In this document: piece by piece, positions 21,873 to 29,876 of the stretch
Layout of the letters: each line of letters opens with the position of its first letter
Position numbering within the stretch: position 1 is the first letter of the stretch
DNA from: a virus
Taxonomy: Duplodnaviria; Heunggongvirae; Uroviricota; Caudoviricetes
Length of the DNA: 35,193 nt
Strand: one strand, 5' to 3'
IMG/VR virus record: IMGVR_UViG_2737471821_000012
Span: 1 to 35,193 of that record
Program-made: the position numbers and the translations under genes
The notes under the pieces: generated by a model
Databases searched by the model: none
Told to the model about the DNA's origin: nothing
What the model saw: only the letters and a program-made list of their open reading frames with translations

Positions 21873-22480
21873 GCGGCCTCACTTCTGCTATTTCGCAGGT
21901 CTTTGAGTTTCTGTTGGTACTCTGCCTTGATCGCCTTGCACTCTTCGACAGTCCAGCGATGGCGGTTATGGTTTGATTCGATTTCGTCTACTGCTTCCTG
22001 CCCGATGCGATTAATCAGTTCGACGCGATACGGAACGAGATTTCCGCTTTTGTGCTGGTTGCACACCACGCATTGCTTGTGAATATTGCGTTCATCAAAT
22101 CGGAGTTGAGGCGCCGCAGCAGTTGTCCGGTAATGCCCGGCATCCCACTGAGCAGACGTGAGCGTTCCGCACGAGATACATGGTAAGTCGCGGTCTCTTT
22201 CTCTGATGAAGGCGTTTACAGCTTGTTGGGCTTGTTTAATCCAGTAACTGCGGGGCTTTAAGGCGAGTTTTCGAATCTTAAGTTTATCTTTCTGTTTCTG
22301 CTCCTCTCGTCGTCGTTTCTTCTCTGCTGCCTTTTCCGCTTTTTCGCGTTCTTTGCTTCGTCGTTCGAGTGCTATCTTGGTTCCACACTCTGGAGAGCAC
22401 CACCACTGATTGGCGAATGCAGGGTGAAACCATTCCCGACATTCTTCGTTTTTACATCGTCTTCGCGCTTGTTTAGCCAT
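21869..22480 (-). CDS. ninG: NinG (Rap) recombination protein
   Basis: 203 aa, Cys-rich, Lys/Arg/Glu-rich linker; matches lambda NinG as recalled; overlaps NinH start by 4 nt. Confidence 0.85.
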
Positions 22481-22749
22481 TATGGTTCGCTCCAGTAATT
22501 CTCAATTGCAGCAGCCATTCTCTGCATCCACTCAGCCAGCTTTAACGCGGCTTCTCTTTCAGAACCACATTTAGGGAAATCCTTCATTTCCATGCTGGCC
22601 TTATATGTTCTGAATGCCAGGTCTCCGGTAATAACCAACTCCTGATCAAGCACCGAGCGTTTATTCCGGTGTTGAACGTAATAGACAGATTCAGTCCGCA
22701 TTTCTTCTCTGTCTTTTTTGAAGGAAATAAGCTCAGAGAAATCACTCAT
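22480..22749 (-). CDS. Nin-region hypothetical protein
   Basis: ORF track 22480..22851; likely true start is the ATG at 22749 ([12 protein letters not shown]...) in an ATGA overlap with the helicase stop; 89 aa. Confidence 0.45.
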
Positions 22750-24049
22750 CGTCTTCACCAGGTGGAACACTGTCATCAAAAGCGCCTTCACGATGGATCC
22801 CAACCCAATAATCGCAATCCTGTTCAATCTGCCCTGTATCTCGTGAGTCACTTGGTAATGGGCGTTTATTGGTTCGGCTTTCCAGTGCGCGGTTAAGCTG
22901 TGTCAGAAGCACAACAACGCAATCAAGCTCTTTGGCAAGGTTCTTCAGTCCTTTGGTGATCATGCCGTAAGCAAGGTCGTTGCGATCGGCCTTCTCAGCA
23001 GTCATTAGTGTCAGGTAATCGACCAGAATCATGCCAACACATCCTTTTTCTCGCTTGATTCGACGGCTTTCGCTGACGATTTGAGCCAGAGATAATCCCG
23101 GCGTGTCGTCGATGTAAAGCATGTCGATTTCACTCAAGCGATTGGCTGTTTCGATCGCCCTGTTGAAGTCACCATCGTAATCACCCTGATAGCCGTCATC
23201 GGCGTCATTTGTCGCCGGAAGGTAAAAAATATTCGGGTTAACACCAGACTTCTGCCCTACCAGTTTTTCCAGTATCTGATCACCTGGCATTTCAAGGCTG
23301 AACATCAGAGCGGGCTTTTTCTCATGCACTGCGCAATTGATTGCCATCTGGCTGTATAGCGTCGTTTTCCCCATCTTAGGGCGAGCGCCAATGACAAACA
23401 GAGAGCCTTTCACCAGACCTTTCGGTGACAGCATCCTGTCCAGCGATGGGATCCCTGTGCTCATTCCTCGCTGTTCGCCTGACGGGTCAAATCGCTTCTC
23501 AAGGTCGCTAACCCAGTCTTCCATGACCTCACCAAATGAGCGAAGGCCGCGACGCGATCCGGTTTTTGCATGGTCTGTCAGTTGCGTGAAAATCGCCTGA
23601 ATAGCTTCGTACTTCTGCGTTGCAGTCATTCCGTTGCGGGAATAGAGCAATTCCGTCGCTTCAGTCATGCGGTTGATGGCGTAGCGTTCCATTGCGGTTT
23701 CACGAACCTGCATTGCATAGGCAACGATGTTTGCTGCGCTTGGCGTGTTCTTTGCGATCTCAGCGATATAAGCAAAACCGCCAACAGACGCCGTTAACGA
23801 TTTACGCTCCAGTTCATCGAAAAGCGTCAGGCCATCTACTGGCTTTTGCTCCCGGTGCATTCTGGTTATTTCTTCGAAAAGGATTTTGTGTGGTCGGCTG
23901 TAAAATGAGTCAGGCTTCAGCATCGCCAGAACCTTCTGGACGCGCTCACTGCTGTCATCATCCAGAAGCAATCCACCAATCACCGCCTGCTCTGCCTCGA
24001 TGCTATGGGGCGGCGCATAAAAATTATCGGTCATCGTGTTCACCCTCAC
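22742..24049 (-). CDS. Replicative DNA helicase, DnaB family (P22 gene 12-like)
   Basis: 435 aa; Walker A GARPKMGKTT and DnaB-like N-terminus (SIEAEQAVIGGLLLD); directly downstream of the O-like initiator. Confidence 0.9.
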   Translation of the reverse strand: MRVNTMTDNFYAPPHSIEAEQAVIGGLLLDDDSSERVQKVLAMLKPDSFYSRPHKILFEEITRMHREQKPVDGLTLFDELERKSLTASVGGFAYIAEIAKNTPSAANIVAYAMQVRETAMERYAINRMTEATELLYSRNGMTATQKYEAIQAIFTQLTDHAKTGSRRGLRSFGEVMEDWVSDLEKRFDPSGEQRGMSTGIPSLDRMLSPKGLVKGSLFVIGARPKMGKTTLYSQMAINCAVHEKKPALMFSLEMPGDQILEKLVGQKSGVNPNIFYLPATNDADDGYQGDYDGDFNRAIETANRLSEIDMLYIDDTPGLSLAQIVSESRRIKREKGCVGMILVDYLTLMTAEKADRNDLAYGMITKGLKNLAKELDCVVVLLTQLNRALESRTNKRPLPSDSRDTGQIEQDCDYWVGIHREGAFDDSVPPGEDDE

Positions 24050-24859
24050 GAACTTTCAGGTAGGTATTATCGTTAAGCAGGAAATCAAATCCCTTTTTGT
24101 GCCAGACGGTTCCGCGCTGATGGTTTGGGCGCTCTTCGAACATCCATCGGCAATTTTCGCCTACGTAGCTCAAATAATTTCTCCAGTCCTGCATCGTGAA
24201 ACCATGCCCGTCAAGCTGTCGGGTTATCACTCCGGCTTTGCGCCAGAACGTTCGGATCTGGTTTTTACGCTTGTCATTCAGTGCGCGGATTCTTGGCGCT
24301 TCAGGAAGGATTTCGTGGTAAGCATCGACAACATCCTGACAGCTAACGGAAGGTTTTTTCTTGTCAGACTTTTTGTCTGCTGTGGCACTCTCTAATACGT
24401 CAGTATTAGAGATATTATTTATATTATTGTTTATGGACAACCGTTGGACAACCGTTGGACAACCGTTGGACAATTTTTTGCCTGAAAATCGTCATATTTA
24501 ACGATTGTAAACAGGCTAAATTTCTTCCCCATCGAGCAAATATTAAGCATACCTTTCGACTCAAAAGTCCGTAATAAGCTCCGAACTTTGTTGTCGGGGA
24601 TGAATGTTTCTCTGACCAGCGACGGGCGTCCAGTTATCATCTGACCGCGATCAACAGTTATCGGACCGATATCCGTATTGACGACAGTAGATTCGTGATT
24701 AGCCTTGAGGATTAAGTGAAGCCAAAGATGTACTGCCTGAGAGTCCTTATAGAGCCTGCTGTCCATAAACTGGCGGTGTATAGAGACATACCCCATACTG
24801 GATGCCTCCTGATGTTGTACAGGGTTATGCCTGTAATCAGCTAACTTAACGACGCCCAT
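24024..24859 (-). pseudogene. Replication initiator (lambda O-like), reading frame interrupted inside the ori iterons
   Basis: Two adjacent minus-strand ORFs (24431..24859 and 24024..24473) in different frames overlap by 43 nt exactly over the iteron array; the downstream ORF begins with TTG not ATG; both frames encode CPTVVQRLS from the repeats. Confidence 0.55.
24435..24473. repeat. ori iterons: 11-bp direct repeat GGACAACCGTT, 3 full copies plus a partial
   Basis: Seen directly: ggacaaccgtt at 24435-24445, 24446-24456, 24457-24467, then ggacaa; followed on the low-coordinate side by an AT-rich stretch and a 10-bp inverted repeat at 24389..24412. Confidence 0.8.
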
Positions 24860-28321: not shown

Positions 28322-28530
28322 TGTGCGAGTTTTATGAAGCAGATATCAAACGCCCAGAAATGGCAAGTGATGCGACATTACGTGATTACTTCGCTGCTAA
28401 GGCTATGGCAGCAATAGTGCGCAGATGGGACGGACATTCCTTTGGCGGTGGACAGAATTCACCACAGTACAAAGAATTAGCAGATGATGCCTACTTTATT
28501 GCTGATGCCATGCTCAAAGCTCGCGAATAA
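28318..28530 (+). CDS. Hypothetical protein
   Basis: 70-aa ORF translationally coupled to the upstream 98-aa ORF (ATGA overlap at 28318-28321). Confidence 0.5.
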
Positions 28531-28626
28531 GCACTGTGTATTCATTCCAACGAGTGAATACACGGAGCAATGTCGCTCGTAACTAAACAGGAGCCGACTT
28601 GTTCTGATTATTGGAAATCTTCTTTG

Positions 28627-28872
28627 CCCTCCATCACCGCCCCCGGTATCCCGCTCATGCTGGCGAACCCAGACACGCAGAGTCTCCGGCGTACAGCCAA
28701 TCTTTGGAGCAATGGAACAAATTGTCGCCCATTGTGAGTCATATTCGCTCTGACTTTCCAGAACCATACGGACTGCCCGTTGACGGACTTCGGGGGAAAA
28801 ACGAGTATTTTTAGTCATCCTGTTTACCTCTTTCTCAGGAAGTTTAGTCTCCAGGATTCCCGGGGCGGTTCA
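28627..28872 (-). mobile_element. Truncated IS3-family element (IS629/IS1203-like): left terminal repeat plus the first ~64 codons of orfA
   Basis: Minus strand reads TGAACCGCCCCGGGAATCCTGGAGACTAAACTTCCTGAGAAAGAGGTAAACAGG ATG ACT AAA AAT ACT...; ORF 28477..28818 begins [23 protein letters not shown]...[14 protein letters not shown] as in IS3-family OrfA (recalled), then diverges into unrelated sequence. Confidence 0.75.
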
Positions 28873-28907: not shown

Positions 28908-29876
28908 ATGAGTGAAGTAACAGATTTAGTTGTTATTGAAAAAGCAAATGCAATGACTGTATTTCAGTCTGCCGACCAGATTGAAGAAATCCTTCAAAAG
29001 GTTGAACATGAAGTTATGTCCTTTGTGCCTGATATCACAACGGCAAAGGGCAGAAAGGAGATCGCTTCTCTGGCGTATAAAGTTGCGCAGACGAAAACAT
29101 ATCTCGATGGTCTTGGCAAAGACCTTGTTGCTGAACTGAAGGAAATTCCAAAGCTAATTGATGCCAACCGCAAGACAGTGCGTGATCGCCTTGATGAGCT
29201 GAAAGCCAAGGCACGCCAGCCTCTTACTGATTATGAGGAAGAACAGGCACGGATTAAAGCCGAAGAAGAAGCTAAGGCAGCAGCTGAAGCTCTCGCAAAG
29301 CAAATTGAGTCTGACCATGAAATAGCGATTTTGATGGATCGCGAATTTGACCGCCAAAGAGAAGAGGCAAGACTCAAAGCGGAGCAGGAAAAGCGAGAGC
29401 ATGAAGAACGCTTAAAAAGAGAAGCTGAAGAGAAAGCCAGAGCAGAAGCCGAAGCAAAGGCAAAAGCCCAAATTGAAGCAGCAGCAAGGCGAGAAGCAGA
29501 AGCTAAGGCCGCAGCGGAACGTGCAGAGCGTGAACGCATTGAAGCCGAGCAACGAGCACAGCGCGAAGCAAAAGAGGCAGCAGAACAAGCTGAAAGAGAA
29601 AAGCAGGCGGCAATTGAAGCAGAACGCCGAAAAGCACAGGAGGAGGCTGAACGAATCCGGCGCGAGGCTGAAGCAAAAGAGCAAGCCAGAATAGCAGAAG
29701 AAAAAAGAATCAAGGACGAAGAAGAGCACAGAGCAAAGGATAAAGATCACCGGAAAGAAGTAAATAACAAAATACTTGCTGACCTTATCAAGGTTGGCGC
29801 ATCAGAAGATGTTGCTAAAAATATCATAACAGCCATCGTAAAAGGCGAAGTATTCGCAACAAAAATAACCTACTAA
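28908..29876 (+). CDS. Highly charged coiled-coil protein (Glu/Ala/Lys/Arg-rich repeats), unknown function
   Basis: 322 aa; ordinary N-terminal ~100 aa, then ~170 aa of low-complexity EAKA/REAE repeats, then a short C-terminal domain; the repeats create several spurious overlapping ORFs on both strands. Confidence 0.65.
   Translation: MSEVTDLVVIEKANAMTVFQSADQIEEILQKVEHEVMSFVPDITTAKGRKEIASLAYKVAQTKTYLDGLGKDLVAELKEIPKLIDANRKTVRDRLDELKAKARQPLTDYEEEQARIKAEEEAKAAAEALAKQIESDHEIAILMDREFDRQREEARLKAEQEKREHEERLKREAEEKARAEAEAKAKAQIEAAARREAEAKAAAERAERERIEAEQRAQREAKEAAEQAEREKQAAIEAERRKAQEEAERIRREAEAKEQARIAEEKRIKDEEEHRAKDKDHRKEVNNKILADLIKVGASEDVAKNIITAIVKGEVFATKITY

Follow-up and report, generated by a model that had tools for sequence, protein, structure and literature searches.

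A 55-bp deletion between origin iterons splits the replication initiator gene of a P22/Sf6-like prophage

Results

Two overlapping reading frames encode the halves of an O-like initiator

The window analyzed here is the whole 35,193-nt stretch of IMG/VR record IMGVR_UViG_2737471821_000012, which carries a P22/Sf6-like prophage whose morphogenesis genes look complete. A preliminary description of this sequence had proposed that an O-like replication initiator is present in two pieces, encoded by overlapping ORFs in different frames whose 43-nt overlap is an 11-bp repeat array. The coordinates of the ORFs and of the repeats agreed with this arrangement (Table 1), with the overlap at 24431-24473 inside a perfect 11-bp repeat. 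ORF1 encodes native residues 1-139, identical to the O protein of Sf6/HK106, followed by Gly-Cys-Pro and a stop. The earlier observation that the upstream frame ends just past the repeats and that the downstream frame lacks an ATG was also correct, as the TAA of ORF1 lies directly after the last repeat and ORF2 has neither an ATG nor a convincing ribosome-binding site, its sole candidate start being a TTG within the repeat and its first in-frame ATG lying about 92 codons in. ORF1 matched positions 1-132 of the PHROG 345 profile (E = 5e-25) and ORF2 matched positions 158-292 (E = 2e-54), and ORF2 additionally matched PHROG 24933 over its full length. These consecutive matches indicate that ORF1 and ORF2 are the N- and C-terminal halves of one initiator of the Sf6 gp43/HK106 O type. 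A continuous frame of about 296 aa was absent from the window, which has two ORFs in different frames as compared to a single 891-bp ORF in 79 intact alleles. Judged by sequence, the locus is a disrupted allele of the PHROG 345 initiator family and not an intact member.

Table 1. Features of the split initiator locus (positions in the 35,193-nt window)
Feature	Position	Strand	Remarks
ORF1, N-terminal fragment of O-like initiator	24431..24859	-	ATG start, 142 aa, PHROG 345
ORF2, C-terminal fragment of same initiator, -1 frame	24024..24473	-	149 aa, PHROG 345
A6 run just upstream of iterons	24474..24479	-	GCA AAA AAT in ORF1 frame, slippery pattern A_AAA_AAT
Four TTGTCC cores (minus-strand reading), 11-bp spacing	24435..24473		Putative remaining origin iterons; 3 + 3 in intact relatives
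AT-rich tract of origin, 80-90% A+T, retained intact	24413..24434		Composition and alignment
Perfect 10-bp inverted repeat TCTCTAATAC / GTATTAGAGA, 4-nt loop, retained intact	24389..24412		Adjoins AT-rich tract
DnaB-type helicase gene, truncated	22742..24034	-	Immediately downstream of initiator

Exact copies of GGACAACCGTT begin at 24435, 24446 and 24457 and are followed by GGACAA, with no further exact copies elsewhere in the 35-kb window. Tandem Repeats Finder placed the array at 24434-24473 (period 11, 3.6 copies, 100% matches, score 80) and ranked it as the top-scoring tandem array of the window. The proposal that these repeats are putative ori iterons was supported by known phages, as the Sf6 annotation already labels the repeat region a putative origin and an origin with iterons has been described for phage L (PMC8022706). 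Across 64 intact haplotypes only 1 of 36 core positions was variable as compared to 18 of 58 in the linkers and spacer (p = 5e-4), and the AT-rich tract was invariant in an alignment with Sf6, HK106, IME10 and phage L.

The window allele lacks 55 bp between two iteron triplets

The intact gene is 891 bp long and encodes 296 aa, and the window allele is 836 bp. The intact origin contains six iterons, in two TTGTCC triplets that lie 66 bp apart and flank a spacer of 38 bp, marked by AACGCAAACACCAGTAATGGCGCGG, a sequence missing from the window. Alignment with intact relatives placed a clean gap of exactly 55 bp between the triplets, removing the spacer and two of the six iterons and shifting the frame by -1. 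The origin was thus damaged as well as the protein, and the two-triplet layout was replaced by four contiguous iterons with the AT-rich tract and palindrome kept. When the triplets are misaligned by one iteron they share 21 bp of homology for out-of-register pairing, and the junction lies somewhere inside the corresponding tract at 24442-24462.

The two-ORF arrangement was not shared by the relatives, as phage, E. coli and IMG/VR relatives carry one ORF. DNA identity to the matched E. coli/Shigella phages (Sf6, HK106, mEp234 and others) was 98.6-99.5% over all 836 bp, and 25 of 26 full-length phage records were 891 bp, including Sf6, HK106, IME10 and 22 more. The exception, ECP1 (892 bp), was considered as a viable phage with a split initiator and rejected, as its extra C is at gene position 302, not within the iterons, and probably reflects a sequencing error, leaving ECP1 uninformative. 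Among complete E. coli genomes the best 60 of 139 near-full-length matches all carried a single 891-bp gene, as did all 79 usable alleles of the IMG/VR set, which consisted of 76 of the 80 IMG/VR loci fetched plus the three phage alleles of Sf6, HK106 and IME10.

The comparison of iteron number with relatives that had been suggested therefore gave 3 + 3 iterons with a spacer versus four contiguous iterons here. This upheld a rearrangement among the iterons as the cause of the split and corrected its form: the ancestor had two triplets and lost 55 bp in one deletion, and a single-unit slip in a simple tandem array was rejected because intact alleles are built as three iterons, spacer and three iterons and differ by 55 bp. 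Similarly, the calculation that removal of 11 bp joins the two frames was right, giving an in-frame product of 274 aa, but the wild type is 296 aa and is reached by adding 55 bp and not by changing one or two units.

The break falls in a predicted disordered linker

An AF2 model of the intact protein contained confident domains at residues 24-127 and 189-296, joined by a linker (residues 128-188, pLDDT about 30) that coincided with the region encoding the iterons and the AT-rich tract. In a structure comparison of the AF2 model, residues 24-127 matched winged-helix DNA binders only, and weakly (E >= 0.016), and many distant relatives matched just one of the two domains. The intact protein is predicted to consist of an N-terminal winged-helix domain, a disordered linker of about 60 residues and a C-terminal domain, which together with the mid-gene origin is the layout of lambda O-type initiators. 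By analogy with lambda (PMC6022878, PMC3349717), the N-terminal domain may bind the iterons and the C-terminal domain may recruit the helicase or its loader. Searches of Pfam gave no match for ORF1, only a sub-threshold match to DUF7376 for ORF2 and the intact protein, and no match to Phage_rep_O; searches of NCBIfam and PDB sequences gave no match and no family assignment. The whole predicted winged-helix domain falls within ORF1 and the whole C-terminal domain is kept in ORF2, with the break in the predicted disordered linker, suggesting that the C-terminal domain is no longer coupled to DNA binding.

The neighboring helicase gene is also truncated

Set against the annotated genes of Sf6 and HK106 and the genes called at ten other loci, the gene order followed that of the early-right operon, with cII and a small gp53-like ORF, then the initiator and then a DnaB-type helicase. 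The helicase followed Sf6 gp44 at 99% identity as far as residue 427 of 478 and then continued with 3 unrelated residues and a stop. Loss of its last 51 residues is a second lesion in the replication module, and the exact truncated product was present on one other contig only, from the same strain. Two 322-aa ORFs of the window were considered as IS copies and rejected, as the window contains no long repeat and one of the two is a P22-type antirepressor Ant. At locus L007 a seemingly truncated repressor, considered as a hint of selection against replication, proved to be an intact gene of 216 aa whose short call was the gene caller's choice.

The deletion recurs on different backgrounds as one of several iteron rearrangements

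At least 20-24 contigs carried the exact 142-aa truncated product; their prophages represented at least five immunity types, and the contigs came from independent samples and sources (NCBI, ENA, Logan). The deleted alleles fell on ten distinct SNP backgrounds that differed mutually at up to 8 sites; each was 0-3 SNPs from a different intact allele, four had flanks identical to it, and private SNPs among the ten numbered only 3. Because each deleted background was closest to a different intact allele, the alignments indicate that the 55-bp deletion arose independently many times. Spread of one ancestral deleted allele by recombination was rejected as the main explanation on the same evidence. 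The deleted allele was rare, with 20 contigs as compared to at least 1000 for one intact haplotype, in counts for which clonal sampling is a confounder. Neither the GTDB species representatives nor IMG/VR contained the exact junction, and an E-value-gated junction search, validated by a positive match for the del66 junction, gave no match in 5,426 complete E. coli genomes or 50,697 phage records.

Other products of iteron misalignment were also detected. Contig counts were 66 for del66, 33+47 and 23 for del11, 20 for del55, 15 for del77, at least 14 for dup66, 6 and 2 for ins11 and 0 for del44, roughly following the length of the homology (30, 21, 18 and 10 bp). As del66 and dup66 create zero novel 31-mers, their Logan counts may include artefacts, and support for both was taken from NCBI records and one complete genome. 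Rearrangements of 11 bp and 77 bp appeared as pairs of neighboring genes, STQ36411/STQ36412 in an E. coli contig of 5.2 Mb and SPZ89820/SPZ89821 in an S. flexneri contig of 2.6 Mb. Natural +11, -11 and -22 alleles of the 11-bp unit yielded exactly the predicted truncated products. The statement that every copy-number change in the array toggles the frame was therefore true of natural ±11-bp alleles and not of all changes, as the commonest natural rearrangements were ±66 bp and in frame, and natural alleles with the linker shortened or lengthened by 22 aa in frame are common. This recurring set of rearrangements (±11, -55, ±66 and -77 bp) in Escherichia, Shigella and Salmonella prophages indicates that the origin of the Sf6/HK620/phage L module, located inside coding sequence, is a recurrent breakpoint and a mutational hotspot. 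A search of the open-access literature found the description of the ori and lambda precedents and no report of recurrent iteron rearrangements.

Discussion

We consider it highly probable (roughly 85%) that the initiator gene of this P22/Sf6-like prophage has become a pseudogene and that its intragenic origin is crippled, both through a deletion between misaligned iterons. In the ancestral state the DNA coding for the linker would have been the origin, with TTGTCC triplets in helical phase at 11-bp spacing and the triplets 66 bp apart, followed in the intact gene by the AT-rich tract and then the palindrome. During prophage replication or recombination the triplets could pair one iteron out of register over 21 bp of identity, and the 55 bp between the misaligned triplets would be lost, leaving a -1 frame shift and four contiguous iterons. 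The N-terminal fragment would still bind the remaining iterons and fail to bring in the helicase, and the C-terminal fragment would be translated inefficiently because no ATG or clear ribosome-binding site precedes it. An origin with four contiguous iterons would itself be impaired, and the prophage would be unable to initiate its own replication, an expectation that is stronger in this lineage because the neighboring helicase is missing its C-terminal end as well. In lambda, small deletions in the ori inside O abolish initiation, and O cut at residue 160, or even at residue 294 of 299, is null (PMC6022878). By analogy with lambda O, which is only distantly related, the replication module is most likely dead. 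As four iterons, the AT-rich tract and the palindrome survive, the origin might fire with an intact initiator supplied in trans. The deletion is ordinary prophage decay and has produced a defective allele of a known type of ori by a known mechanism.

It seems unlikely that the inactivation was selected, either because it disarms the prophage or because the array serves as a contingency locus that turns prophage replication on and off in a partly reversible way. The array has the makings of such a locus, with an intragenic 11-bp unit that is not a multiple of 3 and natural copy-number variants that switch the frame; frameshifting variants taken together are about as frequent as in-frame ones, and loss of a further 11 bp turns the 4-iteron state into the in-frame del66 form, which is common among natural alleles. 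Lambda mutants dead for replication are strongly selected in trapped, derepressible prophages (PMC6022878). The repeated independent origin of the same deletion, which could also point to selection, is accounted for by mutational bias alone since product counts follow homology length, and the rarity of the deleted alleles and the clonal sampling behind the contig counts speak against a selected state. Moreover, a tract of three to four units is poorly suited to hypermutation, the wild type cannot be regained once the 55 bp are lost, and no link to other prophage defects was found bar the helicase lesion in this lineage. We also think it unlikely that the iteron array is a built-in fuse, a recurrent and partly reversible switch in prophage domestication rather than a site of neutral decay. 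In such a scheme the likeliest misalignment, in register over 30 bp of homology, would keep the frame, while out-of-register events would both frameshift the initiator and shorten the origin. Lysogens with a blown fuse would be favored as a derepressed prophage could not kill by runaway replication, and a further 11-bp slip from the 4-iteron state would give an in-frame 3-iteron allele.

The split gene might still give a working initiator through slippage to a fusion of about 275 aa, through reinitiation at a TTG (the candidate at 24440 lies seven nt upstream of the ORF1 stop) or through cooperating fragments, but we judge this decidedly improbable. The A6 run is the sole sequence feature that could permit low-level read-through. 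The slippery heptamer A_AAA_AAT lies at 24474-24480 in the 0 frame of ORF1, and the -1 frame runs straight into ORF2, so that a -1 slip would restore a near-normal protein and a trace of full-length product is possible. The slippage product would differ from the in-frame del66-like protein by a few linker residues, and the model predicts a break that leaves both domains whole, in a linker that varies by -22 or +22 aa in nature. However, all 64 intact haplotypes carry the A6 run as well, and there a -1 slip would be harmful and run into a stop 16 codons on; phage L lacks the run. Both observations suggest that it is not a conserved frameshift signal; relatives encode the protein as a single ORF and show no conservation of a programmed -1 frameshift. 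Most deleted alleles retain an otherwise intact ORF2 and helicase, but an intact ORF2 is expected from recency alone given the 3 private SNPs among ten alleles. The allele was found in no isolated phage or complete E. coli genome of the collections searched above, the origin is also short of two iterons, separate fragments of lambda O are null (PMC6022878), and in this window the helicase is truncated too.

That the isolate truly carries an intact 891-bp gene whose repeats were shortened through assembler collapse, or through slippage of the polymerase while the library was made, is very unlikely, and the sequencing or assembly error raised as an alternative in the preliminary description loses its force against nine novel 31-mers and the same product on at least 20 contigs. 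At k = 21 the deleted allele has no k-mer that is missing from the intact allele, so a small-k graph could produce it; at k = 31, as used for the Logan contigs, nine junction 31-mers are missing from the isogenic intact allele and must be contained in the reads themselves, which rules out de Bruijn-graph collapse at this k. The window was 100% identical over 15.8 kb to a Logan contig of run SRR2239619 and represents the same or a near-identical strain, so support for this copy may rest on a single read set, and the absence of the junction from complete E. coli genomes, phage records, IMG/VR and GTDB species representatives would also suit an artefact. The window nevertheless runs 334 bp past the end of the Logan contig and so comes from a different assembly, the product recurs in independent samples on ten SNP backgrounds, and the related 11-bp and 77-bp rearrangements are seen as adjacent gene pairs on multi-Mb contigs.

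Reading the locus as a pseudogenised initiator has practical consequences. The two ORFs annotated as 'hypothetical' or 'O protein' should be merged and marked as one pseudogene, and the prophage should count as probably replication-defective even though its morphogenesis genes look complete. Iteron rearrangements could act as a simple marker for predicting prophage inducibility, and the natural allelic series of 2, 3, 4, 5, 6, 7 and 9 iterons offers material for testing the iteron need of the origin.

The closest known systems are Sf6 gene 43, the 'O' genes of HK620, HK106 and mEp234 and gene 18 of Salmonella phage L, which like the window have an intragenic origin with 11-bp iterons. The likeness to the Sf6 group extends to the TTGTCC iterons, the AT-rich tract, the palindrome and the gene neighbors (cII, gp53-like small ORF and DnaB-type helicase). 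The match of phage L to the window was confined to the C-terminal half, at about 92.5%, and HK620 did not appear among the matches listed. The window differs from this group in being 55 bp short, with four contiguous iterons and pieces of 142 aa and 149 aa in place of 296 aa. In lambda O and ori-lambda the iterons, the AT-rich tract and the palindrome follow one another in the same order, midway through the initiator gene (PMC3349717), and the lambda ori- 'r' deletions (r95, r96 and r98) are likewise small deletions within the origin, which in lambda abolish initiation (PMC3349717, PMC6022878). Sequence kinship to lambda O is very distant, as the window initiator has no match to Pfam Phage_rep_O and the phage L homologue shows 15% identity to lambda O (PMC8022706). 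Lambda has four iterons of about 18 bp as compared to six 11-bp-spaced hexamer cores in the intact relatives, and a P loader where the module studied here has a DnaB-type helicase. The lambda r mutants that have been sequenced (5/9) are in-frame and laboratory-selected, whereas the window allele is natural and out-of-frame. The event itself resembles slippage deletions between direct repeats, in which the DNA between short repeats is lost at a frequency that rises with homology length. In the IncX1 plasmid origin a 22-bp iteron deletion and iteron copy-number changes in natural isolates have been described (PMC6118388). Unlike iteron loss in that plasmid, the iterons here lie within coding sequence and their period is not a multiple of three, so that one event both changes the origin and puts its binding protein, the initiator, out of frame.

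Split initiator gene in the window

The O-like replication initiator in the window is encoded by two overlapping ORFs, ORF1 and ORF2. The preliminary description had reported this layout with an 11-bp repeat in the overlap, and ORF coordinates and Tandem Repeats Finder bore it out. The 43-nt overlap (24431-24473) holds three exact copies of GGACAACCGTT at 24435, 24446 and 24457 followed by GGACAA, and this repeat (period 11, 3.6 copies, 100% matches) is the top-scoring tandem array of the window. On the coding strand it reads as four TTGTCC cores at 11-bp spacing, the iterons of the putative origin. That the downstream frame lacks an ATG start also held, the nearest in-frame ATG of ORF2 lying ~92 codons downstream, and the two ORFs are halves of one initiator, as PHROG 345 ('replication initiation O-like', 297 positions) covers ORF1 (positions 1-132) and ORF2 (158-292) consecutively. 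The iteron run at 24435-24473, like that of intact alleles such as comparison locus L002 (1887-1980), encodes one 11-residue peptide, cyclic NGCPTVVQRLS, whichever of the three frames is read, because 3 x 11 = 33 bp. Look-alike 'CPTVVQRLS' tails therefore occur in both ORFs and in all frameshifted natural variants.

Features of the window, with coordinates
Feature	Position	Strand	Description
ORF1	24859..24431	minus	ATG start, 142 aa
ORF2	24473..24024	minus	149 aa; sole possible start is a TTG within the repeat
AT-rich tract	24413-24434		retained in window
Perfect 10-bp palindrome	24389-24412		retained in window
Truncated DnaB-type helicase	22742-24034	minus	99% identical to Sf6 gp44 to residue 427/478, then 3 unrelated residues and stop
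PHROG 1258 nin-region ORF	22480-22851		start overlapped by truncated helicase
113-aa ORF	28477-28818	minus	transposase-type HTH (HTH_Tnp_1, E = 1e-7)
322-aa ORF	28908-29876	plus	no family match
Hexanucleotide array in 322-aa ORF	29420-29503		degenerate, 14 copies, 61% matches
P22-type antirepressor Ant	1079-2047	minus	full-length (P22_AR_N + P22_AR_C), left end of window

A 55-bp deletion between iteron triplets

Megablast identified 26 isolated-phage records spanning the whole 836-bp locus at 98.6-99.5% identity, and in 25 of the 26 the matching stretch was 891 bp annotated as one gene, such as Sf6 gene 43 and 'O' of HK106, mEp234, IME10 and HK75. The best 60 matches in complete E. coli genomes were likewise 891 bp. 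So were 79 intact alleles, made up of the Sf6, HK106 and IME10 genes and 76 of the 80 retrieved IMG/VR loci; the protein is 296 aa long. A two-ORF layout is not a conserved feature of intact relatives, which carry a single gene. The exception, ECP1 (L096, KY979108.1; propagated on MG1655), is 892 bp and is the only isolated phage whose gene annotation is split. Its one extra C, at gene position 302 (locus ~317) in the N-terminal domain, lies far from the iterons, all six of which are intact; it is probably a sequencing error, and the ECP1 split is uninformative for the iteron question. Upstream of the initiator in the window are cI, cro, cII and a small gp53-like ORF, and downstream a DnaB-type helicase, matching the Sf6/HK620-type replication module. 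The remainder of the window holds P22/Sf6-like morphogenesis ORFs of normal sizes and a P22-type antirepressor.

Intact alleles have two iteron triplets 66 bp apart rather than one tandem array, in the order A6-TTGTCC-AACGG-TTGTCC-AACGG-TTGTCC, a 38-bp spacer (AACGCAAACACCAGTAATGGCGCGGxTCTCAGCGGAGA), TTGTCC-AACGG-TTGTCC-AACGG-TTGTCC and the AT-rich tract. When aligned to them, the window lacked exactly 55 bp. Pairing between iterons 2-3 in the first triplet and iterons 1-2 in the second, over 21 bp of identity and one iteron out of register, would produce the 55-bp loss. The loss removes two iterons and the spacer, leaving an origin of four contiguous iterons in place of 3+3, and shifts the frame by -1. 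Removal of 11 bp from the window does restore the frame in silico, as first calculated, with a 274-aa product. As history, however, a one-unit slip is refuted by the two-triplet intact structure and the 55-bp difference.

Recurrence and spectrum of iteron rearrangements

The window's junction (del55; products are named by the bp lost or gained) was shared by the ten other loci compared, which together with the window represent ten SNP haplotypes up to 8 sites apart. Each del55 haplotype had a different nearest intact allele in the 79-allele panel, 0-3 SNPs away; in four the flanks exactly matched those of four different intact alleles, and private SNPs among del55 haplotypes numbered three in all. 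The del55 loci were in prophages with at least five immunity regions and differing recombination modules. These sequences are most simply read as many recent, independent occurrences of one deletion. The junction is rare, and none was found in 5,426 complete E. coli genomes, 50,697 phage records, IMG/VR or GTDB representatives.

All products of iteron misalignment were generated in silico and the exact predicted proteins looked up. For the large deletions the counts, which are of contigs and not independent events and may include contig ends among 'partial' records, tracked homology length (del66 30 bp, del55 21, del77 18, del44 10).

Predicted iteron-misalignment products and the contigs carrying them
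Product	Length	Contigs
Intact haplotype, commonest type	296 aa	at least 1000
del66, in frame	274 aa	66, plus other haplotypes
del11, first triplet	139 aa	33, plus 47 with alternative start; includes adjacent pair STQ36411/STQ36412
del11, second triplet	159 aa	23
del55 (window)	142 aa	20
del77	137 aa	15; Shigella flexneri, adjacent pair SPZ89820/SPZ89821
dup66	318 aa	14, plus >20 further haplotype clusters
ins11	164 aa	6 (second triplet), 2 (first triplet)
del44	148 aa	0

Logan counts of del66 and dup66 may include artefacts because neither has novel 31-mers; del66 was present in one complete E. coli genome and many NCBI records. In-frame gain or loss of the whole 66-bp triplet-plus-spacer unit (22 aa) was common on many haplotypes, with 318-aa gains in protein records P0066 and P0069-P0089 and 274-aa losses in P0046 and P0098-P0107, corresponding to 9-iteron and 3-iteron origins. 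The Salmonella 299-aa lineage had parallel 277-aa forms (P0161, P0166, P0172, P0183), a parallel deletion in the phage L-type lineage. One Logan protein (P0123, 453 aa) matched the first ~77% of the initiator at 98% identity yet carried DnaB_C/ATPase Pfam domains, and looks like a further rearrangement fusing initiator to helicase. No report of a recurrent rearrangement spectrum at an Sf6/phage L-type origin was found in the limited, open-access literature searched.

It is conceivable that iteron rearrangement is selected or switch-like, as del55 recurs and lambda offers a precedent of 'replicative killing'. The pattern does not call for such a role, as mutational bias accounts for it and rearranged alleles are rare.

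Effects of the deletion on initiator and origin

AlphaFold2, run on a 42-sequence alignment headed by an intact 296-aa protein, predicted two confident domains (residues 24-127 and 189-296, pLDDT mostly 77-93) flanking residues 128-188 (pLDDT ~30), exactly the stretch encoded by the iterons and AT-rich tract. Structural matches to the N-domain were winged-helix DNA binders alone (TubR, CodY-C, MarR, ArsR; probability ~1, best E-value 0.016), supporting a winged-helix DNA-binding domain at the level of fold only. Many distant relatives picked up by an exhaustive profile search matched the N-domain alone or the C-domain alone, which agrees with a protein of two modules connected by a linker. The TTGTCC cores varied at 1/36 positions compared to 18/58 for linkers plus spacer (64 intact haplotypes; p = 5e-4), a pattern that fits cores acting as recognition elements. 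In intact alleles L015-L094, the 5-nt linkers and 38-bp spacer (gene positions 387-480) were also hypervariable relative to the whole gene (83/891 sites).

The 55-bp loss parts an intact predicted DNA-binding domain from an intact predicted C-terminal domain, and the C-terminal part now has neither an ATG nor a clear ribosome-binding site. In lambda, small ori deletions abolish initiation, and O is null when cut short at residue 160 or even at 294/299 (PMC6022878; PMC3349717). By this analogy initiator function has very probably been lost. A -1 ribosomal slip at the A6 run just upstream of the iterons (A_AAA_AAT in the ORF1 frame, ORF2 being the -1 frame) would yield a near-normal initiator. 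However, every intact haplotype carries the same A6 run, and in these a slip runs into a stop 16 codons later; phage L lacks the run, and relatives do not share the two-ORF layout. Slippage is at most incidental leakiness.

Authenticity of the junction and a second lesion

The sequencing or assembly error raised in the preliminary description is very unlikely: de Bruijn assembly of intact reads could yield the deleted allele at k = 21, but this allele holds nine 31-mers without counterpart in the isogenic intact allele, so that a k = 31 assembler (as for Logan contigs) cannot make del55 from intact reads, and the identical 142-aa product is on 20-24 other contigs (NCBI, ENA, Logan). The window matches Logan contig SRR2239619_8 at 100% identity over 15.8 kb and runs past its end, so it represents a separate assembly, made from the same strain or a near-identical one.

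The helicase gene directly downstream of the initiator is truncated and fused to the nin region, which looks like a deletion from its 3' end into that region. The exact truncated product was found elsewhere in SRR2239619_8 only, and the helicase is full-length (478 aa) in other del55 prophages. The initiator split and helicase truncation therefore make two hits in this lineage's replication module.

Elsewhere in the window, the 113-aa and 322-aa ORFs lie on opposite strands within the leftward early operon, a pair also seen in comparison locus L008. Ant at the left end indicates that the prophage has an immI-like region; tailspike and integrase are outside the window.

Relation to known systems

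Deletion between short direct repeats is a well-known process. Iteron loss in natural isolates is also well known, for example in IncX1 (PMC6118388). The same ori type is already annotated in Sf6, and for phage L it has been described as six imprecise 11-bp repeats within gene 18 (PMC8022706). The window locus is a defective allele of this known family, made by a known mechanism.
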